DNA of 38,853 nt, taken from IMG/VR virus record IMGVR_UViG_3300002171_000004, positions 1 to 38,853 of that record, one strand, 5' to 3'. This DNA is from a virus. Lineage: Duplodnaviria; Caudoviricetes. The translations under genes and the position numbers were made by a program. A model generated the notes under the pieces. It was not told the DNA's origin and did not search any database. It was given only the letters and a program-made list of their open reading frames with translations. Positions 3,561-38,628 of this stretch are shown in pieces; position 1 is the first letter of the stretch, and each line of letters begins with the position of its first letter.

Positions 3561-3905
3561 ATGTTAACTCTAAAGAAATTAAAAAAGATGGCACCAGATA
3601 CTATTTTTGCTTCTGGAATAGGTTTTATTGAACATCCTTGGTTTAATCAAGCGACTAAAACAATTGAGGCAGATGGAAAATCAACTAAAGTAAAATGGGT
3701 AGCAATTAGAGGTTATATTCATGACTGGGCTATTTATCACTCACTTGATGCAAATTTAGAACCTGCTAATAATTTAGATGGCACAAGTCATTTGAATGCA
3801 GATTTTCAAACAATAGCCGATCATGGAGCAAAATTACATAATAGGGAAATAGTTAAAAAATTAGTACCTTGTTCAAAATTAGCATTAAAATTTTATAGAG
3901 ATTAA
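3561..3905 (+). CDS. Hypothetical protein
   Basis: ORF in a tightly packed operon. Confidence 0.7.
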   Translation: MLTLKKLKKMAPDTIFASGIGFIEHPWFNQATKTIEADGKSTKVKWVAIRGYIHDWAIYHSLDANLEPANNLDGTSHLNADFQTIADHGAKLHNREIVKKLVPCSKLALKFYRD

Positions 3906-3906
3906 T

Positions 3907-6844: not shown

Positions 6845-6942
6845 AACTAATTAAATTTTTATTAGTAATGATTTTTTCACCTTTCATTCTTTTTGGAATA
6901 GTTTTATTATTGGTAATTAATAATTATAATGAAACAAAATGA
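6841..6942 (+). CDS. 33-aa single-TM peptide (not in the ORF track)
   Basis: MKLIKFLLVMIFSPFILFGIVLLLVINNYNETK; AGGAG RBS and ATGA overlaps with both neighbours. Confidence 0.65.
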   Translation: MKLIKFLLVMIFSPFILFGIVLLLVINNYNETK

Positions 6943-7862
6943 TAAATACTGCAGAATCAATAAGTAATTGGCATCCAGATAAAATCTGTGATTTAATTGC
7001 TGACAATATAGTTAGAGAATGTTTAAAACAAGATCCAAAATCTAGATGTGCAGTAGAAGTATTTGGTGGTCATGGATTAATTATTGTCGGAGGAGAAATA
7101 ACAACCAAGGCAATTGTTGATTATGGAAAAATTACTAGAGAATTTTATTTAAAACATTGTGAAAAAGAAATTGGAGTAATAGTAAATATAGTGACTCAAT
7201 CTCCAGACATTGCTATGGGAGTTGATAAAGGTGGAGCAGGAGACCAAGGGATTATGTTTGGATATGCTTGTGATGAAAATGAAGAATTTATTCCTCAAGA
7301 AAAATATTTAGCAGATTGTTTATTAAGAGGAATTTGTGTTGATGCTAAATCTCAAATTACTATAAAGGATGGAATAGTTACTGATATTGTTTTATCAGTT
7401 CAAGGTAAAACTCAAGAAGAATTAAATAGTTATGTTAAAGAATTTTGCGAGTTCTTCAAACTTGGAAATCCAAATGTTTATTGTAATTGGACTGGAAAAT
7501 TTGAAATAGGTGGATTTGATGCTGATTGTGGAGTTACTGGGAGAAAAATAGTTTGTGATCAATATGGACCAAGAGTTCCTGTGGGTGGTGGAGCTTTTAG
7601 TGGTAAAGATTTTACCAAAGTTGATAGGAGTGGGGCTTTAATGGCTCGTTATATTGCTCTGGATTTACTCAAAAAGAAAAAAGCTCATTCAGTATTGGTT
7701 AAAATAGCTTATTGTATAGGAAAGGCTGAACCACTAATGGTAATGGCTAGCATTGATGGAATAGCAAAAGATGTTTCTAAAGAATACGATTGTCGTCCAA
7801 GAGAGATCATTAAAAAATTAAAATTAGGGTATAAAACCCTTAACCAATCTATTGACCAATAA
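6939..7862 (+). CDS. metK: S-adenosylmethionine synthetase, short form (307 aa)
   Basis: TAES...HPDKICD, GAGDQGIMFGYA, DAKSQ, DCGVTGRKI and GGGAFSGKD.TKVDRSG signatures. Confidence 0.95.
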   Translation: MINTAESISNWHPDKICDLIADNIVRECLKQDPKSRCAVEVFGGHGLIIVGGEITTKAIVDYGKITREFYLKHCEKEIGVIVNIVTQSPDIAMGVDKGGAGDQGIMFGYACDENEEFIPQEKYLADCLLRGICVDAKSQITIKDGIVTDIVLSVQGKTQEELNSYVKEFCEFFKLGNPNVYCNWTGKFEIGGFDADCGVTGRKIVCDQYGPRVPVGGGAFSGKDFTKVDRSGALMARYIALDLLKKKKAHSVLVKIAYCIGKAEPLMVMASIDGIAKDVSKEYDCRPREIIKKLKLGYKTLNQSIDQ

Positions 7863-7886: not shown

Positions 7887-8300
7887 ATGAAGGAATCCAA
7901 CTTTCAAACGATCTGGCACAATTATTTAGTTCACAATCCATTACCTCAACCAGAGGTCCATGAATTGAAATTGGTTAAAAGAAATGTCTTTGTTTTTGAC
8001 GCAGTAAAAGACCACCAAATTCTTGGTCTTAAGTGTGCAGAAACAGGATTATTCCATAAAATCAGTGACAGTCCAATCTATGCTGGAATGAAAAGCAGAT
8101 TCACAGCACAAAAACCATTTGATTGTCTTTGGTTAACAGGAATTAAAGGATTCGTAATTATTTGTTTTTACGAACCTAGAAAATACAAAAAAGTATTTAA
8201 AATAGGGATTGACCAATTCCTTAAAATAAAGGAAAATCATCCTAGAAAGTCAATTAGACTTAGTGAGTTAGAATTATTAATTAAACCAATAAACTTATGA
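7887..8300 (+). CDS. RecU-like / PD-(D/E)XK Holliday junction resolvase-like nuclease
   Basis: E..FQ, VHELK, VKDHQI..L and KPFDC motifs. Confidence 0.55.
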   Translation: MKESNFQTIWHNYLVHNPLPQPEVHELKLVKRNVFVFDAVKDHQILGLKCAETGLFHKISDSPIYAGMKSRFTAQKPFDCLWLTGIKGFVIICFYEPRKYKKVFKIGIDQFLKIKENHPRKSIRLSELELLIKPINL

Positions 8301-8575
8301 GTGAAAATGAACAAAAAAAACCTGAAATTCAGGAACCAGTTATAGAACCAATTGTTAATGAATGCAAACATGATACTGGATGGGGAAGGCTTGGAAGCCA
8401 TCCTTTAAACAGTAGTGATGGAAATGTATTCATAATTGGAATAGTTTTCTGTAAAAAATGTGGAATAAATAAAATTCAAGTCCACAGAATTGCTCCAGAA
8501 AAACCTGCTGAAGAAGCTAAGCAAGAAGTTGCTATACCTCCAGTGGATATTCCATCAAACACAGAAGCCAATTAA
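8297..8575 (+). CDS. Small zinc-ribbon protein with acidic, Pro-rich tails
   Basis: CKH...CKKC. Confidence 0.55.
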   Translation: MSENEQKKPEIQEPVIEPIVNECKHDTGWGRLGSHPLNSSDGNVFIIGIVFCKKCGINKIQVHRIAPEKPAEEAKQEVAIPPVDIPSNTEAN

Positions 8576-8924
8576 TGGCTTCTTGTAGGGTGTGAGATAT
8601 GGTTCTTAGATTAGTCTCTTCCCACCTCATACCCTACCAAAAGTTATTAATTCTTTAACAATTTAGTTCTGCCAACTGGATCGTAGAGTTGCTCCTACCG
8701 TTCTAGTCAACGTGCAGGTCGCACCTCAGTCAACCAAGGCCTTTAGTTGATTGAGATATACTAGACAAAACTGTGGACCTGTCAGGACCATTGGTAGAAC
8801 TAAGTTTTTAAAACTTAAAATTTAGGTCAGGAAAGCAAACGGAGCATGGGAAGGCTCAATGATAAGAGACTAAGTGAAGCGATTCACTGAAGGACTCACC
8901 TGATACCGCACCCGCCTAAATTTT
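8572..8924 (+). ncRNA. Cluster of three structured RNA domains, family unassigned
   Basis: Three consecutive long closing stems (8572-8650, 8663-8803, 8817-8924); G-U wobbles indicate the + strand; GCGA tetraloop and loop-loop complementarity. Confidence 0.7.
8651..8661 (+). promoter_or_regulatory. boxA-like antitermination motif
   Basis: TTCTTTAACAA between RNA domains 1 and 2, versus the boxA consensus CTCTTTAACAA. Confidence 0.5.
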
Positions 8925-8932
8925 TTTAAATT

Positions 8933-9754
8933 ATGGAAGAGATTAAAAATAGATATCATTTTGATGAAAAGATACACGTCCACTACTTGGATGATAAGCC
9001 TTTGTGTGGCACATCTACAGTGGAGAGTGTTTTAGCAAAACCGCTCTCGTGGTGGGCCTCTGGTAAAGCAATGGAATTATTAGGTTGGGTAAATAGAAAT
9101 TTAGAACCTAATGAAGCACTCAGATTAGAATCTTCAACCAAAGTTTTAGAAGAAATTAAAAAGATGGGTCCTAAAACTTATTTGGCACTATTGGATAAAG
9201 CTTATAAAAATCACTCAGTTACCTTAAAAGATTCGGCCACAGCAGGAACCGACCTCCATGCTCTACTTGAAAAGTGGGTTAAATCTAAAATGCAAAATCA
9301 GATTCAAGGCACACCAGTTTGTGATCCTGAAGAACAGATTATGCCATTTGTTGATTGGTGTAATAAATTTGTTAAACGTTTTCTTTGGTCTGAACTTCAT
9401 ACCTATTCTGAGTCATTATGGATTGGAGGAATCACTGACTGTGGAGTAGAAATGATTGATGGAAAAGTTGGAATTATTGATTTTAAGTCAGCTAAGGAAG
9501 TTTATTTTGACCATTTTGTGCAGTGTGGAGGTTATGCTCTACAACTTGAAGAAAACGGGGGTTTTGATGCTAATGGATTTAAAGTTTTTCAATTAGAACA
9601 CAATATTGATTTTATGGCTATTGTTCCTTTTGGAGCCAAGAATATTGTTCCTACCTTAAATAAAAATGGTGAAGGGACCACTGTTGAAGATTTTAAAAAC
9701 TCTTTTAAAGCCTGCTTAACTATTTATAAAAATAAACAAAAATACAATGAGTAA
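8933..9754 (+). CDS. PD-(D/E)XK exonuclease-like protein
   Basis: GTDLH, SE, GGITD, IIDFKS and Q.GGY motifs of the lambda-exo/Cas4-like/RecB-type nuclease fold. Confidence 0.8.
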   Translation: MEEIKNRYHFDEKIHVHYLDDKPLCGTSTVESVLAKPLSWWASGKAMELLGWVNRNLEPNEALRLESSTKVLEEIKKMGPKTYLALLDKAYKNHSVTLKDSATAGTDLHALLEKWVKSKMQNQIQGTPVCDPEEQIMPFVDWCNKFVKRFLWSELHTYSESLWIGGITDCGVEMIDGKVGIIDFKSAKEVYFDHFVQCGGYALQLEENGGFDANGFKVFQLEHNIDFMAIVPFGAKNIVPTLNKNGEGTTVEDFKNSFKACLTIYKNKQKYNE

Positions 9755-12700
9755 TTATATTTGGGTATTAAATCCTAAGGGTAGAATGGTTGAAGTTGAT
9801 GAAACTCTACTGCCAGAGCTTCTTAAAAAAGGTTTTACCAAGGCAGATGGAACTGAAAATACAATTTCCTCCTCCACATTTATTCCTTCCGACCCGAATA
9901 ATGCTGATATAAATTTTATATCAACCTTTTGGGCCAACAATGGTATGGGTAGAGTAGGGGAGGAGATTCTTTTGGCCTTAGACAGATTGGGATTAAAAAT
10001 TAATGTCAAATCACTTTATACCCTAGAAGAGGGACTTCAAACTAGAACACTAGAATTACTTAAGAAAAATTACTCTCCTGCTAAAAAAACCTTAATGTTT
10101 TCCATCCCCCAACCTCTAGAACAATTTCATGATTCAGAAACTTATCTTCATGTTCCTTGGGATACCTCCAAGGCTCCAGATGAATGGGTTACTTTAATTA
10201 ATAAATATTGTAAAAAAGTTTATCCAACTTCACATTTCACAAGGGAAACATTTTTAAACTCAGGAATTAAAGTTCCAATGGAGACAATCAAACATGGAGT
10301 TAATACTAAAAGATTCCCTCTACTTCAAAGAAATTGGGATGGAACTTTTACATTCTTAACTTTTGGTGATATCTCAGTAAGAAAAGGAACTGATGTTTTA
10401 ATTGAAGCTTTTGAAAAAGCTTTTCCACCAAAAATAAGAAATGTAAAACTAATTATTAAAAGTAATAAAACAATGGACTGGGGAAGAATCAGAATCCCAA
10501 ATGATGACAGAATCCAGGTAATTGAAGAATCTTACACTCACCAACAACTTTTACAATTGATGAAGGAATCTCATTGTTTGGTATTTCCAAGTAGGGCTGA
10601 AGGTTTTGGTTTACCAGCTTTAGAAGCTATGTCAACAGGCATGGCCACTATTCTTCATAATTATGGTGGTCTATCCATGATGTGTAATGATAAATATAAT
10701 TTTCCTTGTAAATCAGATGGCACAATGACTCCTCCAGAATGGCATTATCCTGAATCTTATTCTTTAGGTGGAGGTATTGGAACTTGGACCAATCCAGACA
10801 TGAAACACTTGTCTCAGTTAATGAAATTTGTTTATGAACAACGAGACAAGGCTAAAAAGAAAGGAGAATTAGCTTCAGTTTGGGTAAAAAAGAATTGGGA
10901 TTGGGATTCTCAAATTAAAAGACTTTGGGAAGATATGAATCCTGAATTGAAACAAAAAACTTGGGGTGAATTTTATAATGGAGATATTATTACCAAAGGA
11001 AACTGTCAAAGTGCTATCAATTCTCATAAAGAATTTTTTTGGACAATTTTAGGATTTAAACCTAAAAAAATTATTGAGACTGGATGTGGAACTGGTGAAA
11101 TGGCTGCTTGGTTAACTTGGAAAAATAAAGCAATTGAAGGTAAAACTGCTGGAAAAGAAACGATTGAAGAAGTAATTGCTGTTGATGTTGATCCAAAAGT
11201 AATTAAGATTGCTAAGGCTAATATGGAGTCACTAGAAGGCACTGCTAAGATTGTTAAGGCTGATGCTTGGCATTATCAGGAAAAAGCTGATTTAATCTTC
11301 TCACAAGGGCTATTAGAACATTTTAATGACGATGAATTGAGAGATTTAATTAGTCACCAATTAGAACAAGCTCCAGTTTTGGTTCACTCAGTTCCTAACA
11401 GTTTTTACTCCAAAAGAGATTTCGGCAACGAAAGACTTTTAAATAATGAACAATGGTATAAAATTTTTGAAGGTTTTAATTTAACTATCTATAATTATTG
11501 GGAAGAAAATGAACACAAAATTCAAAGTATTTTAATTTTCCAAAGAGATTTTGCTAAAAAAGTTTCTATAATTATGCCTATTTGGAATCAAAAAGAGATT
11601 ACTATTAAGGCAATTGAGGCTTTAAGACAAAATACTCCACAAGATTATGAACTAATTTGTATTGATAATAATTCTAATGATGGGATTGAAAAATGGTTAG
11701 ATCAACAAAAAGACTTAAGAGTAGTTCATTGTTCCCAAAATCTTGGAGTTCCAAAAGCTAAGAATTTAGGAATGGCAATTTCTAGAGGTGAATATTTTTG
11801 CTTTTTAGATAATGATACTGAGGCTGGTAAAGATTGGTTAAAAACAATGTTGTCTGTTTTTGATGATCCTACTGTTGGTTTTACAGGCCATGAAGGTTAC
11901 ATGATTGATTATGAAAATAATAGTTTTTTAGGAACCAAATATAAGACTGAAGTAAATCCTGAATGGATTTCTGGTTCTATTTTTATGTTTCCCAAAAAAT
12001 TAATCAAAGAAGTTGGGATGTTGTTTGATGCTGATCTGTGGTGTGTGGAAGATGTTGATTTTTGTTGCAAGATTAGAAATGTCGGTTATGTTGGAAAATT
12101 ACCAATGGAGCCAGTAAAAATGAAACATTTAGTTAGTGCTACTGCCTCAAAATTAGATTTTAGTGTGGATAGATTTAATAAATGGGCTGGAAAAGTATGG
12201 ACTGAATGGAGAGAATTTTTAATAGCCAATAAGGATGGAGGGGTTAGAATTGATATCGGTGTTGGTGATGCTCCAGCTCCAGGTTATCTTCATGTTGATA
12301 TTCAGAAAAAATATCATGTGGAAGTGATTGCTGATTGTCGTAAACTTCCTTTTGAATCCAATACTTTGGCTGAGGTTAGAAATGCTCATGTGATTGAACA
12401 TTTTACTAGAGTTGAAATGGAAACTATTATTGAAGAATGGATTAGGGTATTAAAAGTTAATGGAATTTTAAGAATAATTTGTCCTGATTTTAGAATGATT
12501 TGTAAAAAGTTTATTAGTGGTGAAATTGATGTAGAAAGAGCCTTGTCTTGGACTTATGGAGGTCAAATTGATAAATATGATTTTCATTTTTGGATGTACA
12601 CTCCAGAAACCTTAACTCAATTATTTATGGCTCATGGACTTACTAATGTTGGCCATAAATATACTAATGAAGGGTGGTTAGAGGTGACAGGGATAAAATT

Positions 12701-13793
12701 AGAAAACAGTGAAAAAAAAACAGCTTCAGAAGTTAGTCAAGAAATTCCTGAAAGTCTTGAGGAGCATATTATTAAGGAAACATTTCCTATTGAAAAAGGA
12801 GAGTTAATTAATGAACCTAAAAATAAAGTCAAAATTGGAGTTTATATTACTCATGTTCATACTTTTGGTGGTGGAGAAAATGTTACTTTTCAAATTTTAA
12901 GTATTTTAGGTAAATTATATCCAGGGCAAGTAGAAGTCATTAGTTCAGAACCTTGGAGAATTAATCCTGAAGATTTTGGTATTGATTTAGGGGGAATTAA
13001 ACAAGTAAAAGAAAAAGGGCAAAATTATGATTTGTTTTTAAATATTTCCCACTTCAAGCTTCATGATCCTATTGGAAAAATAAATTTAGTTTGGATTTTT
13101 TATCCTCAATTTAATTGGCAACCACAACTTAATTGTTATGATGGCTTAATTACCCAATCTAATTTTATTCAAGATGAAATTCAAAAGAAGTGGGGAATGA
13201 AATCACTTTTAGCTTATCCACCAACTAATATTTCTAATTTTAAAATAGGTAAAAAAGAAAAAATAATTTTAACTGTGGGAAGATTTTTTAAGGTTGAAGG
13301 TGGTAATAATAAAAATCATGATGTCATGATTGAAGCTTTCAAAAAATTACCAAAAGATTGGAAAATGATAATGGTGGGGACTGTTCAAGATGAAAATTAT
13401 TTTAAAGAAATTAAAAAATTAGCTGAAGGATTAAATATTGAATTTAAACATGATATTAGTTTTGATGAATTGGTTGAATTATACGCAAAAGCTAAAGTTT
13501 ATTGGCACGCTGCAGGTTTTGGAACTGAGGAGGCCTCCTCTCAAGAACACTTTGGCATGGTAGCAGTTGAGGCTCTTGCCTCTGGATGTCAAACCCTAGT
13601 TTATAATGGTGGGGGAATTTGTCAAATTGATGGAGTTAAACCTTGGACTTCAGTTAATGATCTGGCATTAAAAACAATTAATGCCAATGAAGATTGTGAA
13701 TATTTAAGAAATCAATCTAGAAAATATTCAGTTGAAGCGGTTACTGATTTATGGAAAAAGATAATTGATGGACAACTTAAACAAATCAAATAA
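9747..13793 (+). CDS. Five-domain GT4-methyltransferase-GT2-methyltransferase-GT4 protein
   Basis: FPSRAEGFGLPALEAM (~10584); IETGCGTG (~11076); VSIIMP..N, FLDND and EDVD (from ~11562); IDIGVG, HVIEHF and RVLK.NG.L (from ~12246); EHFGMVAVEA (~13545). Confidence 0.9.
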   Translation: MSNYIWVLNPKGRMVEVDETLLPELLKKGFTKADGTENTISSSTFIPSDPNNADINFISTFWANNGMGRVGEEILLALDRLGLKINVKSLYTLEEGLQTRTLELLKKNYSPAKKTLMFSIPQPLEQFHDSETYLHVPWDTSKAPDEWVTLINKYCKKVYPTSHFTRETFLNSGIKVPMETIKHGVNTKRFPLLQRNWDGTFTFLTFGDISVRKGTDVLIEAFEKAFPPKIRNVKLIIKSNKTMDWGRIRIPNDDRIQVIEESYTHQQLLQLMKESHCLVFPSRAEGFGLPALEAMSTGMATILHNYGGLSMMCNDKYNFPCKSDGTMTPPEWHYPESYSLGGGIGTWTNPDMKHLSQLMKFVYEQRDKAKKKGELASVWVKKNWDWDSQIKRLWEDMNPELKQKTWGEFYNGDIITKGNCQSAINSHKEFFWTILGFKPKKIIETGCGTGEMAAWLTWKNKAIEGKTAGKETIEEVIAVDVDPKVIKIAKANMESLEGTAKIVKADAWHYQEKADLIFSQGLLEHFNDDELRDLISHQLEQAPVLVHSVPNSFYSKRDFGNERLLNNEQWYKIFEGFNLTIYNYWEENEHKIQSILIFQRDFAKKVSIIMPIWNQKEITIKAIEALRQNTPQDYELICIDNNSNDGIEKWLDQQKDLRVVHCSQNLGVPKAKNLGMAISRGEYFCFLDNDTEAGKDWLKTMLSVFDDPTVGFTGHEGYMIDYENNSFLGTKYKTEVNPEWISGSIFMFPKKLIKEVGMLFDADLWCVEDVDFCCKIRNVGYVGKLPMEPVKMKHLVSATASKLDFSVDRFNKWAGKVWTEWREFLIANKDGGVRIDIGVGDAPAPGYLHVDIQKKYHVEVIADCRKLPFESNTLAEVRNAHVIEHFTRVEMETIIEEWIRVLKVNGILRIICPDFRMICKKFISGEIDVERALSWTYGGQIDKYDFHFWMYTPETLTQLFMAHGLTNVGHKYTNEGWLEVTGIKLENSEKKTASEVSQEIPESLEEHIIKETFPIEKGELINEPKNKVKIGVYITHVHTFGGGENVTFQILSILGKLYPGQVEVISSEPWRINPEDFGIDLGGIKQVKEKGQNYDLFLNISHFKLHDPIGKINLVWIFYPQFNWQPQLNCYDGLITQSNFIQDEIQKKWGMKSLLAYPPTNISNFKIGKKEKIILTVGRFFKVEGGNNKNHDVMIEAFKKLPKDWKMIMVGTVQDENYFKEIKKLAEGLNIEFKHDISFDELVELYAKAKVYWHAAGFGTEEASSQEHFGMVAVEALASGCQTLVYNGGGICQIDGVKPWTSVNDLALKTINANEDCEYLRNQSRKYSVEAVTDLWKKIIDGQLKQIK

Positions 13794-14478
13794 TTTAAAA
13801 GTAGCTTATTGGAATACAAATAATAATTTTGGAGATTGTTTAACTCCAATTTTATTAGAAAGGTTATTTGGAATAAAATCTGAATGGGTTGAACCTGAAA
13901 AGGCTGAGTTTGTAGGGATTGGATCACTTCTAGAAACTTTTTCCAAAAATTATAAAGGAATTATTTGGGGAAGTGGAAAAATGTTTGAAGAGTCAGAAAT
14001 TGATTTATCTGAAGCCAAAGTATTAGCTTTAAGAGGAAAATTAACATTAAGCAAAACTAAATGTGAATGCTCTGTTTTTGGTGATCCTGGATTATTGGCC
14101 AAATTAATTGCTCCCACAGGAATTAAAAAAGAATATGAATTTGGAATTATCAATCACTGGAATGATAAGAGACAAAAATATGGAGAGCATAATAATATAA
14201 TTGATATTACTAGTGGAATTGATAATGTTATTTTGGAAACTTTAAAATGTAAAAAAATTGTTACTTCATCACTTCATGGATTGATATTGGCTGATTCTTT
14301 AGGAATACCAAGATTATGGTCTCCAAGTGAGTCAAGTCCTGGTGGTAGTTTCAAATTTGATGATTATCAATCTAATTTTGGAATTAAATTAACTCCATAT
14401 AAATGGTATAAAATTGACCCAAAAAAAGTGGATGAAATTAATAAAAAATTAATTAATAGTTTAAAATCAATTTTATGA
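13765..14478 (+). CDS. Polysaccharide pyruvyl transferase family protein (ExoV-like)
   Basis: NFGD.L, GIGS, IWGSG, ALRGKLT, GDPGLL and SSLHGLILADSLGIP. Confidence 0.85.
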   Translation: MMDNLNKSNNLKVAYWNTNNNFGDCLTPILLERLFGIKSEWVEPEKAEFVGIGSLLETFSKNYKGIIWGSGKMFEESEIDLSEAKVLALRGKLTLSKTKCECSVFGDPGLLAKLIAPTGIKKEYEFGIINHWNDKRQKYGEHNNIIDITSGIDNVILETLKCKKIVTSSLHGLILADSLGIPRLWSPSESSPGGSFKFDDYQSNFGIKLTPYKWYKIDPKKVDEINKKLINSLKSIL

Positions 14479-15113
14479 ATTCAATAGTCACTTTTTGTGC
14501 TGTATTTAGAAATGAAGCCAGTAGATGTAGATATGTACTTGATTTAGCTTCAAAACTTTTTGACAATATAATAATTGCAGTACAAGAATCAGATGATGAA
14601 ACTCTTCAAATCTGTAAAGAATATACCAAGAATATTATTGTGCGACCTTCAGAAGGTCCAGAAGAATCCAAAGATTTTATAATGGAACAAGTAAAAACTC
14701 CTTGGACTTTTTGGTTAGATGCTGATGAATTTCCCTCAATGGGAGTGATTAGAATGTTGGAGAGAGTTGATCCATCAATACTTTTTGGTTATGATTCTGT
14801 TTCTTTTATTAGAACCAATTATATTGATGGTTTAATAATTGAAGGTGGCCAAGGAATTGATCGCCAATACCGAATGATGAGAAATGATGTGAGATGGAAT
14901 CCTAAAGCTCAAGGTAAAGTGATTCACATCCATCCACTTATTAAAAAAACTCTAGAAAGTGATTTAATTATCTACCACCACAGAACTTTAGATAAAGTAA
15001 AAAAAATGACTGAAAGATGGAATAGCTTAGAAAAATCTAGTATTAATGATTGTAATTTATATGTTAAAAATGTGGAGAAAGAACTAAAGGAGAAAAAGAA
15101 TGGAAAAAATTAA
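14475..15113 (+). CDS. Glycosyltransferase family 2
   Basis: RNEA, SDDET and W.FWLDADE (DXD motif). Confidence 0.85.
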   Translation: MNSIVTFCAVFRNEASRCRYVLDLASKLFDNIIIAVQESDDETLQICKEYTKNIIVRPSEGPEESKDFIMEQVKTPWTFWLDADEFPSMGVIRMLERVDPSILFGYDSVSFIRTNYIDGLIIEGGQGIDRQYRMMRNDVRWNPKAQGKVIHIHPLIKKTLESDLIIYHHRTLDKVKKMTERWNSLEKSSINDCNLYVKNVEKELKEKKNGKN

Positions 15114-16113
15114 AGTAAATGCACAATTTTTATCACTAAATTACAAAAGTTTTGAAGGTTGGGGGAGACACCGAGAACTAATTGAATCTCAACTCCAATT
15201 TATGAATGAATCTCCTTATAAATTAGTTTTGGCCAATCCTTATAAAATTGATTTAAAACCTGGAGAAAAAGTAATTTATATGTCCACTTTTGAGGCGGAT
15301 AAATTACCTGATGAATTTATTGGTCCAGCTAATAAAGCAGTGGCAATTATAGTTCCAGATATTTGGGTAAAAAATGTATTCATTAATTCTGGAGTAACGG
15401 TTCCAATTTACATAATTCCCGAAGGAGTAACTGATAACACTGTTTGGCATCCAGAACCAAAGCCTTTTACTTTTTTACACTTTGATGCCACTTCTTATGC
15501 CAATAGAAAAGGTGGAGACATGGTTTTAGATGCTTTCATTAGTGTTTTTGGAAATATGCAAGATAAAGTGAAATTAATAATGAAAGGAAGAAATCATCAT
15601 GTAGCCTCTCCAAAAAAATACAACAATGTGGAATATATTTTTGAAGATTATAATCAAGCTCAAATGGATGATCTTTGGAAAAAGACTAATTGTTTTGTTT
15701 TTCCATCAAGAGGTGAAGGTTTCGGATTACCACCTCTAGAAGCAATGGCTCATGGAATTCCCACCATTGTTACCAGAGGAAGTGCTATGGAGACTTTTTC
15801 TTATTATGCTATTCCTTTAAATGTTATTGGCAAAATTACTGCCACTTATGATGGTTACACTAATTTTGGAAAATGGGATAAACCTGATTCTTTAAAACTG
15901 AGAGAATTAATGTTGATGGTTTATCAAAATTATGAAAAAGAAAAAAGAAATGCAGAATTTAATTCATCAATTATTTGGCAAGATTATAATTTTTCCAATA
16001 TTGCTCCAAAACTAGCCGAATTGATTAATGCTATTATATCTGAGGATAGTAAAAGTAGCATCTCAAGTGAAATCATTAATTCTACGACCTCTAGTGAGGT
16101 CATTATAAAATAA
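15100..16113 (+). CDS. Glycosyltransferase family 4 (GT-B), paralogous to the first domain of the 1348-aa protein
   Basis: FTFLHF...RKG.D..L.AF and FPSRGEGFGLPPLEAMAHG. Confidence 0.88.
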   Translation: MEKIKVNAQFLSLNYKSFEGWGRHRELIESQLQFMNESPYKLVLANPYKIDLKPGEKVIYMSTFEADKLPDEFIGPANKAVAIIVPDIWVKNVFINSGVTVPIYIIPEGVTDNTVWHPEPKPFTFLHFDATSYANRKGGDMVLDAFISVFGNMQDKVKLIMKGRNHHVASPKKYNNVEYIFEDYNQAQMDDLWKKTNCFVFPSRGEGFGLPPLEAMAHGIPTIVTRGSAMETFSYYAIPLNVIGKITATYDGYTNFGKWDKPDSLKLRELMLMVYQNYEKEKRNAEFNSSIIWQDYNFSNIAPKLAELINAIISEDSKSSISSEIINSTTSSEVIIK

Positions 16114-30401: not shown

Positions 30402-32138
30402 TTAGAATCCAAAGAATTTTTTAATATTTCCCAATGCAGTAGTTCCAAAGTTTTTAACTTTGTCTAATAATCCTGTATTGGTACTAGTAGATGGTCCCAT
30501 TGATGGACCTGAAGTTACTGAATTGTTTGAATTTACCGAAAGACTTGGCATTGTTGGAGAAACAAAAGAAGAGTTTGCTCCAACAGCTGTTGGTAAATTA
30601 AGATTTAATGATTTAAGATTTAAATTTGGACCAAAATTAGTACCTGATAAATCAATGTTTCCTTTTGCGACTGGAATATTGTCTTGAGGCGTAGTAACAG
30701 TTGGAGCAGGTTTGCCTTTTAAGAAATCAACCGCTTTAGAAAAGAAATTTTCTTTTTTTACAGTTGGTTCTGTGACCGTTGGTTCAGTTGTTGCAACTGT
30801 TGGTTGAGTGGCTCCAGCACTTAAAATTGTTGGTGACATAAATGGTCCAGTTTGAGTTTTATCAGTTGAACCAAATGAATTTTGAAGAGAATTTACATCA
30901 ACACTATTATCGGTTGGACTTAAAAATTGTTTTAATCTGGTTAAACCACCATTAATAAAATCAGTTAAAGTTTTTCCTGATTGAACCTGAAAACGGGATT
31001 CAAATCCAGTTGCAGCTGGAGTATAAAGTTTAAAGTTTGTATTATCAGATGGGCTAAATGATTGGTCTACTGGATTGTAATTAAATTGTTTAGTAGTAGT
31101 GATTCCGTTGGCATTTGTTTGAGGAACAACCAAAGAATAACCATTAGTTTCATCTAATTGTTTAATTGCCCGATTAGCGTCAGTAGTACTCACAAATGGA
31201 GTTTTAACAGCCTTTTGGCCAGTTGTTGAATCAACGACATAAAAAATACTTCCAGTTGGATTTGATTCAATCGTATATTTGCTTCTAATGTAATCTGGAG
31301 TTGATTTTAATTTGTCATTTTCTAATTCTTGGTGAGTGATTGATTGAACTTTTCCACTTCTATCTAAAACATCAAAAACTTGGCCGACTTCTCTTTGAGC
31401 CAATCTATTTTTAACATAATCAGTATTTTCAGCAACGTCAGTGTAATAAGTTTGGGGGATATCAATTCCTTTTGATTCAGCAGTACTTAGTGCAGTTTTC
31501 ATTTGAGTACCGTTTTGAAGTAATTGTTGATCTAACTGATATCCAGTTATTTTTCCATTTTGAAAATCTTGAATTAATTGTTTATTTTCAGTAGCAACAT
31601 AAGCAAAATATTTATCCAAATTATTTTTAATAGTCGTTTTTCCTGCAGCAGCACCCTCACTAATAACCTGATTTTTTAATTTTGCCTCTTCAGTTACCAA
31701 ATCAGCATAAGTACTGGTTCCCTTTGGAGCTAAATCCTTTAATTTACGCACAATATCAAGTTCATTTTGAGTAGTAACTTTTCCTTTAAATTGTTCAAGC
31801 ATATTTGCTCTTGCCTGTTCAACAGTAGTTTTTGCATTATTTTCAATTAAAGTTTTATTGTATTTTTCCGCCTCTACCATTAAAGACGTGTAAGTTGAAG
31901 CTTTGGTGCTACCAGCATCTAAACCTTTAATTTTATCCGATAAATAATTTTTAAAATCTTCATACTTTAAACTTCCCAACTTAAAAAGATTTAATTTGGT
32001 TTGTAAATCATTTTCCTCAGCAGTATCAATAGCTTTTTGAAAAGTAGAAGCATATCTAGAAGCGATATTTGAATAAGAAGAATCCCCAGTAGGAATTTTG
32101 CTTAATCTACGTCTTGGATTAGATGTGACTGTTGCCAT
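30402..32138 (-). CDS. Putative internal virion / ejection protein
   Basis: 578 aa, helical N-half, S/T/P-rich C-terminus; lies between the portal and the large protein. Confidence 0.45.
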   Translation of the reverse strand: MATVTSNPRRRLSKIPTGDSSYSNIASRYASTFQKAIDTAEENDLQTKLNLFKLGSLKYEDFKNYLSDKIKGLDAGSTKASTYTSLMVEAEKYNKTLIENNAKTTVEQARANMLEQFKGKVTTQNELDIVRKLKDLAPKGTSTYADLVTEEAKLKNQVISEGAAAGKTTIKNNLDKYFAYVATENKQLIQDFQNGKITGYQLDQQLLQNGTQMKTALSTAESKGIDIPQTYYTDVAENTDYVKNRLAQREVGQVFDVLDRSGKVQSITHQELENDKLKSTPDYIRSKYTIESNPTGSIFYVVDSTTGQKAVKTPFVSTTDANRAIKQLDETNGYSLVVPQTNANGITTTKQFNYNPVDQSFSPSDNTNFKLYTPAATGFESRFQVQSGKTLTDFINGGLTRLKQFLSPTDNSVDVNSLQNSFGSTDKTQTGPFMSPTILSAGATQPTVATTEPTVTEPTVKKENFFSKAVDFLKGKPAPTVTTPQDNIPVAKGNIDLSGTNFGPNLNLKSLNLNLPTAVGANSSFVSPTMPSLSVNSNNSVTSGPSMGPSTSTNTGLLDKVKNFGTTALGNIKKFFGF

Positions 32139-37566: not shown

Positions 37567-37666
37567 CATTAGTTTTGGAGTAGCACATCTCTATTTTCTC
37601 TATAAAGAACAACATCCAAAAGGAACCAAAATAGGATTTTTAAAATGGATTAAAACTAGAAAATAA
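37559..37666 (+). CDS. 35-aa basic early protein (not in the ORF track)
   Basis: MNDISFGVAHLYFLYKEQHPKGTKIGFLKWIKTRK; start overlaps the upstream gene end. Confidence 0.55.
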   Translation: MNDISFGVAHLYFLYKEQHPKGTKIGFLKWIKTRK

Positions 37667-37694
37667 TTTATTATATTTAATTCTAAAAACAACT

Positions 37695-37724
37695 AAACTG
37701 ATCCAATATTTGGGTCAGTTTTTT
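37695..37724 (+). terminator. Rho-independent terminator
   Basis: AAACTGATCCA-loop-TGGGTCAGTTT followed by a T run. Confidence 0.75.
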
Positions 37725-37752
37725 ATTTTAAACAAGTGCTTAATTTGGGGTA

Positions 37753-37781
37753 TTGACCATCTATTCCAATGGTAGTAGATT
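37753..37781 (+). promoter_or_regulatory. Sigma70-type promoter, predicted leaderless transcript
   Basis: TTGACC-17 bp-TAGATT-6 nt-ATG(37788). Confidence 0.7.
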
Positions 37782-37787
37782 GGTTAT

Positions 37788-37910
37788 ATGCACACACAAA
37801 AAAAACAGAGACAAATTTTTTCCAGCATAGTAAAAAGCCGATTGGTGGTGTGTGCAAAACTCTGTCCAGTCGGCTTTTTTGTGTGTTGGAGAGGAGGCCA
37901 AAATGAGTGA
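37788..37910 (+). CDS. 40-aa leader ORF spanning an attenuator-like hairpin, stop overlapping the initiator start
   Basis: MHTQKKQRQIFSSIVKSRLVVCAKLCPVGFFVCWRGGQNE; ends within ATGAGTGA. Confidence 0.5.
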   Translation: MHTQKKQRQIFSSIVKSRLVVCAKLCPVGFFVCWRGGQNE

Positions 37911-38628
37911 AGGATGGGTTAAATTACACAGAAAATTAAAAGATAATCCAATTTATACCAATTCAGTTGCTGTTCATTGTTGGATTGAATGTTTATTGAG
38001 AGTAAATCATGATCAAAAAACATTTTTTTTAGGAAACCAAAAAATAACTTTAGAGGCAGGTCAATTTGTTACTGGAAGAATAGAATTTGGAAAGTCAATT
38101 AACAAATCACCAACAACAGCATGGTTTTGGTTAAAACAGTTTCAACTTGACAGCATGATTGACATCAAATCTACTAATAAATACTCGGTAATTACCATAT
38201 TAAAATGGAAAGACTATCAACAACTTGACATCAATATTGACAGCAAAAAGACAGCAAAAAGACAGCAAAAAGACACAAACAAGAATGATAAGAATGAAAA
38301 GAATATTATATGCGACAAAAATGAAATTGATTTTATTGCTCAAAAACTTTTAGAACACTTCAATAAAACAATGAACAAAAAAGTAAAATCTTATTTACCT
38401 TTTAAAAACAATCTTATCTATTGGCTTGGTATCTACTCCAAGGAAGAGATAGCCGCCGCCATTTCCCGAATGCCAAATCATAACTTCTTCAAACTCCTAG
38501 AAACTCCAGTCACTTTGTTTAGGAAGAAAAACCAAAATAAAGAGGATGTTGATTATATTGGCCAGCTATTAAATATGGCCCCGATCAAAAAAGAGGGTGG
38601 AGCAATTAATAATTTAATAAACGAATAA
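37903..38628 (+). CDS. Replication initiator (lambda O / replisome organiser-like); likely start ATG 37903
   Basis: GWVKLHRKL N-terminus, L..GQFVTG, S.ITI..W..YQ; GAGGAGG RBS; internal iterons. Confidence 0.85.
   Translation: MSEGWVKLHRKLKDNPIYTNSVAVHCWIECLLRVNHDQKTFFLGNQKITLEAGQFVTGRIEFGKSINKSPTTAWFWLKQFQLDSMIDIKSTNKYSVITILKWKDYQQLDINIDSKKTAKRQQKDTNKNDKNEKNIICDKNEIDFIAQKLLEHFNKTMNKKVKSYLPFKNNLIYWLGIYSKEEIAAAISRMPNHNFFKLLETPVTLFRKKNQNKEDVDYIGQLLNMAPIKKEGGAINNLINE
38143..38276 (+). repeat. Iterons / putative replication origin inside the initiator gene
   Basis: TTGACA(G/T)C x4 and GACAGCAAAAA x3 in tandem (38239-38271), followed by A-rich AAGAAT repeats. Confidence 0.75.

Follow-up and report, generated by a model that had tools for sequence, protein, structure and literature searches.

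Stable RNAs are a long-known feature of phage tRNA clusters. Antisense RNAs that present loops to their targets include phage P1 c4, P4 CI and plasmid CopA, and interdigitated T-loops bind the tRNA elbow in RNase P, the T-box and the L1 stalk. Here we describe an array of structured RNA modules, D1, D2 and D3, in a phage genome that we refer to as the window (the whole 38,853-nt stretch of DNA that was analysed). The array resembles rnaC and rnaD of T4 and RNAI, III, IV, 1, 2, 2H, 3 and X of T5 in the size of its units (70–170 nt), in their closed folds and, among the relatives of D3, in the presence of co-oriented tRNA genes. Unlike these stable RNAs, D3 has neither a T-arm nor a CCA end, and its copy in the window sits in an array without tRNAs; neither nhmmer nor the D3 model gave a significant match in the tRNA regions of T4 and T5. 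D1 and D2 recall the loop-presenting antisense RNAs in exposing loops complementary to possible targets, and neither matches C4 in Rfam. GOLLD (RF02032) and ROOL (RF03087) are described in the accessible text of PMC5737381 as phage RNAs that often lie near tRNAs and are probably co-transcribed with them, but the locus has no Rfam match to either, and D3, with a core of ~60 nt, occurs on its own.

The window is a complete phage genome with direct terminal repeats, and groundwater sequencing runs that contain it may be its source. Early genes, including a primase-helicase, a SAM synthetase, an exonuclease and glycosyltransferases, lie on the + strand, and virion genes lie on the − strand. A search for the phage host gave no assignment, and ARAGORN found no tRNA gene in the whole 38,853 nt. 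The SAM synthetase and a glycosyltransferase/methyltransferase block that includes a 1348-aa fusion occupy 6939–7862 and 9747–16113. The structured region falls between a short ORF without an assigned function, whose stop codon falls within the 5′ arm of D1, and the exonuclease gene (Table 1). A first-pass annotation made from the sequence had drawn three closed domains here, and every stem it listed is present, with all five non-Watson-Crick pairs being G-U as claimed. The GC enrichment that it reported was likewise borne out: GC is 41.6% here, 32.3% in the window as a whole, and 32.6% and 36.3% in the two 350-nt flanks. The region as a whole folds with z = −5.1, and none of 100 shuffles was as stable; taken singly, D1 gives z = −6.0 (0/200 shuffles), D2 z = −4.7 (0/200) and D3 z = −2.1 (4/200). 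Its tile is the most stable among the non-overlapping 355-nt tiles of the window. The next most stable are 37631–37985, which lies in the gap before a replication gene, and 30531–30885. Folding energy barely separates the two strands (−110.6 versus −106.4 kcal/mol), so the assignment to the + strand rests on the G-U bias and on the D3 relatives, which lie on the tRNA strand. A scan of the window against Rfam 15, the check by which novelty was to be judged, gave zero matches at the gathering score and only three at E ≤ 10 (E 1.8–5.4). The whole region, D1 and D2 returned only short matches (E ≥ 0.8) by blastn against 50,697 phage records. A boxA and AU-rich linkers lie between the domains, and the region is best read as three separately folded modules, not as one RNA.

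Table 1 Features of the structured RNA array and its neighbouring genes
Feature	Position	Strand	Description
92-aa ORF, function not assigned	8297..8575	+	Upstream neighbour; stop codon overlaps D1 5′ arm
D1 hairpin	8570..8652	+	12 bp, 3x3 loop, 12 bp; 29-nt loop 8597–8625
D1 loop complementary segment	8610..8622	+	Pairing potential with D3 insert and three early-gene start regions
rrn-type boxA	8652..8665	+	14/14 identical to E. coli rrnH leader; single copy in window
D2 multibranch module	8660..8806	+	147 nt, closed by 16-bp stem 8660–8675/8791–8806
D2 hairpin and loop segment	8711..8721	+	11-nt perfect complement of 23S rRNA 1958–1968 (E. coli rrlH count; E. coli may not be the host)
D2 second segment	8782..8792	+	9/11 complementary to 23S rRNA 1917–1927 (alignment; same count)
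D3	8817..8924	+	Belongs to an uncatalogued RNA family that is widespread in phages
D3 closing stem	8820–8827/8914–8921	+	Extends to 8817/8924
D3 purine-rich loop	8828–8840	+	13 nt
D3 core pairs	8841–8842/8911–8912, 8844–8845/8908–8909, 8848–8849/8906–8907	+	Three 2-bp helices
D3 variable insert	~8850–8902	+	9–68 nt across the family
PD-(D/E)XK exonuclease gene	8933..9754	+	Downstream neighbour, not a conserved D3 partner

D3 belongs to a well-supported, uncatalogued family of phage RNAs. An 18-letter pattern retrieved nine viral loci, three of them true D3, and the metagenome scan retrieved 24, made up of 21 true members, the contig of the window itself and two chance matches. Variable positions learnt from the isolated phages RSP15 and Vibrio 1.121.O gave a relaxed pattern from which the 3′ motif of D3 was absent; 77 of its 78 viral loci are true members, 73 with the exact 3′ motif and four with one change, and the remaining locus is a chance match. 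Together, the 107 loci reduce to 70 distinct members, window included, and Cobetia phage Carin-5 carries a further one (65.4 bits), which adds to RSP15 and Vibrio 1.121.O among the isolated phages with D3. Because the search patterns fixed the 5′ core, they exaggerate how invariant it is and passed over members that have diverged further. All three matches in a GTDB genome scan, which covered the 20-mer of the C-type D3, were due to chance; the A- and G-types are commoner variants. No Rfam match covers D3 in three sets of homologue loci (3, 12 and 20), and topic and motif-string searches at the level of abstracts, of PMC5737381 and of the supplement of PMC10690425 found no published description of the family. 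D3 may be among the 10,000 candidate viral RNAs of PMC10690425.

The fold of the family consists of a closing stem that varies freely in sequence, a purine-rich loop and three 2-bp helices, between which lie an A-A mismatch and an AU bulge; beyond the helices comes an insert of variable length. Approximately 30 nucleotides are near-invariant and form few Watson-Crick pairs. The proposed check by covariation supports this fold: 94.9% of 980 cells are paired, and the covariation score of 0.534 was reached by none of 500 shuffles and compares with 0.04–0.14 in slid controls. RNAalifold gives 13 of the 14 family pairs. One core pair is A-U in 32, C-G in 21 and G-C in 15 of the 70 members, and remains variable after removal of similar inserts (24, 14 and 12 of 52, respectively). 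Covariation gives no proof of five core G-C pairs, which are the same in every member. The predicted energy of the family fold in the window is −20.2 kcal/mol, 5.5 above the predicted minimum of −25.7. The fold originally drawn for D3 was not supported, as its listed stems exist in the sequence but GAGC/GCTC and TCAGG/CCTGA are kept in one member of 70, namely the window.

The genomic surroundings of D3 place it among tRNAs and other small structured modules. A tRNA gene lies in the flank (up to 1 kb, less on the shorter contigs) of 31 of the 70 members, on the same strand in 31/31, and within 300 nt in 30 members, many within 10 nt. The copy in the window stands in an array without tRNAs; other members sit in arrays of stem-closed modules. 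In seven loci (L044, L047, L071, L077, L113, L120 and L153), the same stems and linkers recur around the tRNAs, around D3 and around the other modules and close them, which suggests a shared processing signal. One module in these arrays, which we take to recall c4/IsrK-type RNAs, has no Rfam match. In Vibrio phage 1.121.O, ~1.2 kb around D3 (L109, 2150–3400) contains no annotated genes and no Rfam match, and this stretch likely holds more RNA modules. A permuted tmRNA (L127, 1773–2008) and a group I intron (L112, 572–769) were also seen near D3 members. No downstream gene is conserved across the 70 members, and D3 is absent from 37/37 exonuclease-related records, of which 20 are at least 90% complete, so the proposed tie between the RNA and the exonuclease-glycosylation operon is not supported. 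What stands of the first-pass reading is a set of non-coding RNAs that is indeed uncatalogued, with processed small RNAs as the best of its three options (ribozyme, processed small RNAs or riboregulator); the tie to the operon and the drawn D3 fold find no support. Neither D1 nor D2 was found beside D3 in other loci, which indicates that the modules travel separately. When the 269 ORFs of the window (≥30 aa) were compared with eight D3-bearing records, only a tail fibre (two records) and a capsid protein (one record) matched. No phage protein is common to these records, which points to a host partner, and we infer that D3 is a trans-acting RNA that would engage such a partner.

Several observations bear on what this partner may be. 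The 5′ strand of D3 agrees with E. coli RNase P RNA 133–153, which we take to be J11/12-P12, at 16 of 21 positions (one free), a level reached by 3/300 shuffles and the best among five host RNAs; 23S rRNA scores 15/21 by the same measure. When gaps are allowed, the alignment of this strand with RNase P does not rise above chance (468/1000), and E. coli RNase P gives no match to the D3 model at E ≤ 10. Among 52 non-redundant D3 inserts, 14 carry a YURAR word in the hairpin loop against 3.1 expected (0/200); the remaining 38, the window's included, lack it, so a second T-loop is not general. The likeness to the RNase P specificity domain (J11/12-P12) and to the interdigitated T-loop motif (accessible text of PMC4919913) lies in a purine-rich loop followed by an irregular helix and in the T-loop-like word of some inserts. 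By contrast, D3 has no catalytic domain (P4, conserved regions I, IV and V) and no equivalent of J12/13 on its 3′ side. By analogy, the purine-rich loop could form a T-loop-type platform that grips the tRNA elbow as J11/12 does in RNase P; this is our first choice among docking models, still tentative and one that we are inclined to doubt, and we give about equal weight to a role as decoy for a conserved RNA-binding protein of the host. The same review lists such viral T-loop RNAs among the things that a future search should look for (PMC4919913, accessible text). RNase P RNA (RF00010) was found in 0/50 D3-bearing records, with controls detected in 11/14. Other candidates were set aside. D3 is not RNase P, and no RNase P-like RNA was seen around it in the 70 contexts. 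Antisense pairing of the D3 3′ strand to RNase P (10 nt) is matched by 18/300 shuffles and covers a covarying position that differs in 49 of the 70 members. A likeness of D3 to L1, S8, SRP, cobalamin or ATP-aptamer RNAs was also dropped, since key positions vary or no model gave a match.

D1 is a long hairpin whose closing stem reaches 12 bp (8570–8581/8641–8652); an 8-bp hairpin at 8563–8583 competes with its basal stem. Its loop forms 10 Watson-Crick pairs with the D3 insert at 8864–8873 (10 bp are reached by 19/2000 shuffles) and 12 bp, one of them G-U, with the first codons of the exonuclease gene at 8935–8946; no helix of this kind on the + strand is longer. The loop is also complementary to start regions at 2380–2390 and 3897–3906, which belong to two further early genes, and weaker pairings of 8 bp each are available with D2 at 8784–8791 and D3 at 8847–8854, the latter clashing with the conserved D3 fold, which uses 8848–8849. 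Of six sense-strand matches to the loop, three fall in start regions (genes at 2391, 3907 and 8933), a count reached by 10 of 400 shuffles, and duplex energies at 43 start regions show no overall enrichment (3/43 versus a background of 5.8%). Judged from these complementarities, D1 may act as an antisense RNA on the start regions of early genes, a role that we suggest with considerable reserve. No homologue of D1 was found by blastn and nhmmer, including beside the D3 loci. By eye, loop positions 8601–8617 have ~14 nt in common, with one gap, with T5 RNA2H (L111, 4809–4980); this likeness is probably due to chance because nhmmer did not report the match.

D2 is a multibranch module with a loop-loop complementarity that reaches 7 bp (8714–8720/8776–8782). 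Part of it coincides with a segment complementary to 23S rRNA, and the loop of this segment can also pair internally with 8776–8782. Against a preselected 81-nt target in 23S rRNA, the 11-nt complement is matched by 2/2000 shuffles (5/1000 by alignment), and it is the only 11-nt match to that target on either strand of the window; a value of 0/1000 after removal of a hairpin is post hoc. Tested against all host RNAs considered, the rRNA complementarity of D2 is not significant (34/100 shuffles). Pairing of D2 with 23S rRNA in the neighbourhood of helices 69–71 is, in our view, possible rather than probable. Its only relative is a single 151-nt contig from a freshwater run (X3), which spans 8673–8813 with two differences in 141 positions and keeps the 11-nt complement; coding pieces from the same run are more diverged (10/102, 19/148 and 14/72 differences) and need not belong to one phage. 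Viral contigs scanned with D2 patterns yielded 1, 26 and 5 matches, all judged to be chance or coding, and revealed no diverged homologues. A single-sequence D2 model was found in 0/50 D3-bearing and 0/37 exonuclease-related records, with a best E of 0.025 in 15 loci. An unrelated phage (L134), one of the 69 other members, carries the 11-mer again in the module that immediately precedes its D3, against 0.007 expected. In this phage and in L143, the module is closed by a stem, lies ~95–15 nt upstream of the D3 core and contains the same 13-mer as the D2 hairpin; a close relative (L189) carries a different module in this slot, and modules are therefore interchangeable. Elsewhere, a tRNA-array module 3′ of D3 (L125, ~1227, and L161) is complementary at 14 of 15 nt to 23S rRNA ~1920–1934. 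D1 and D2 are both real folds, and the roles suggested for them are putative.

The boxA-like motif noted between D1 and D2 proved to be a genuine rrn-type boxA, with a chance expectation in the window of 0.004. It shares with the rrn leader both its sequence, 14/14 identical to a reference from E. coli, which may not be the host, and its placement in untranslated structured RNA, but it lies here in a phage small-RNA array. In the X3 relative, D2 is followed by another boxA-like word. In RNA that is not translated, boxA brings in NusB-NusE and prevents termination by Rho (PMC4807359, accessible text), and we infer that it has a function of this kind in the array. Sequence from X3 also preserves 8928–8973 with one difference in 46, and a tRNA-like T-arm precedes the exonuclease start there; a relative may therefore have a tRNA in the D3 slot.

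We propose that three independently folded modules are likely transcribed with the phage early genes. Host Nus factors would load at boxA and aid transcription and folding through the untranslated stretch, and host nucleases would free each module at its long closing stem, as in tRNA-array RNAs, to yield small RNAs. The near-invariant purine-rich loop of D3 would then serve, in trans, as a docking surface for a conserved component of host translation. The reading as an array is, taken alone, quite probable, and the whole explanation, with array, processing and docking of D3 on the host translation machinery, seems to us somewhat more likely than not. A bolder version, in which the phage deploys an RNA-only toolkit against host translation, with D3 as a free-standing RNA, common to phages of many hosts, that grips tRNA elbows like half an RNase P specificity domain, D2 pairing directly with the subunit-interface region of 23S rRNA and D1 silencing early phage genes, is quite unlikely.

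The exonuclease start next to D3 invites a different reading, in which the region is a cis-acting leader for the exonuclease and glycosyltransferase genes, the D1 loop covering the start and the D3 insert competing for the loop and so freeing it. The same D1 loop bases are indeed shared by the duplexes with the exonuclease start and with the D3 insert, at nearly equal energies (−18.2 and −18.3 kcal/mol), the start-proximal sequence is well kept in the X3 contig, and in several members D3 and a start codon are no more than 40 nt apart. Against this, ~2.6% of random 30-nt windows reach −15 kcal/mol or better, no + strand terminator was called, and the X3 contig has the tRNA-like arm in the place of D3. 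Since D3 also lacks a conserved downstream gene and is missing from all the exonuclease-related records, such a leader is improbable. The pairings of the D1 loop with D2 and with both D3 segments could alternatively tie the three domains into one ornate RNA of ~355 nt in the manner of GOLLD and ROOL, and the 10-bp helix is rarely reached in shuffles. The other 69 members, as far as searched, have D3 without D1 or D2, the conserved D3 fold blocks the pairing at 8847–8854, the boxA and AU-rich linkers separate the domains, and neither GOLLD nor ROOL is matched in Rfam, so that a single composite RNA is very improbable.

Catalysis or ligand binding would account in another way for the near-invariant nucleotides of D3, whose number and scarcity of Watson-Crick pairs would suit an active site or a binding pocket for a ligand. 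In this reading, a new ribozyme or metabolite-binding RNA, either D3 or the pseudoknotted D2, trims neighbouring RNAs or sequesters a nucleotide signal; members often lie 0–10 nt from a tRNA. The closing stem pairs both D3 ends, no covariation for a pseudoknot was seen, and no Rfam ribozyme or riboswitch was matched in the window or in 35 loci. The suggestion of a ribozyme or SAM-binding role found no positive evidence in the Rfam searches of the window and the homologue loci, and we give this class of function little credence. Lastly, D3 could be the only functional module, with D1 and D2 serving as hairpins for processing or termination, or being modules in decay, and with complementarities that arose by chance; no family was found for either, and the tests of their complementarity are post hoc. 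This is hard to reconcile with the folding scores of D1 and D2, with the two differences in 141 positions of D2 in X3 when set against the coding pieces (possibly from different phages), or with the recurrence of the D2 11-mer beside D3 in L134, and we judge it highly unlikely.

An array of separate modules, of which D3 likely acts in trans, remains the reading we prefer. The D3 family, with its strongly covarying core of ~60 nt, spans small groundwater phages to phages of 368 kb, and its occurrence in isolated phages of marine, non-pathogenic hosts (Carin-5 and Vibrio 1.121.O) makes its function directly testable. If D3 binds tRNA or the ribosome, it would represent a viral RNA that acts on host translation without a viral protein.
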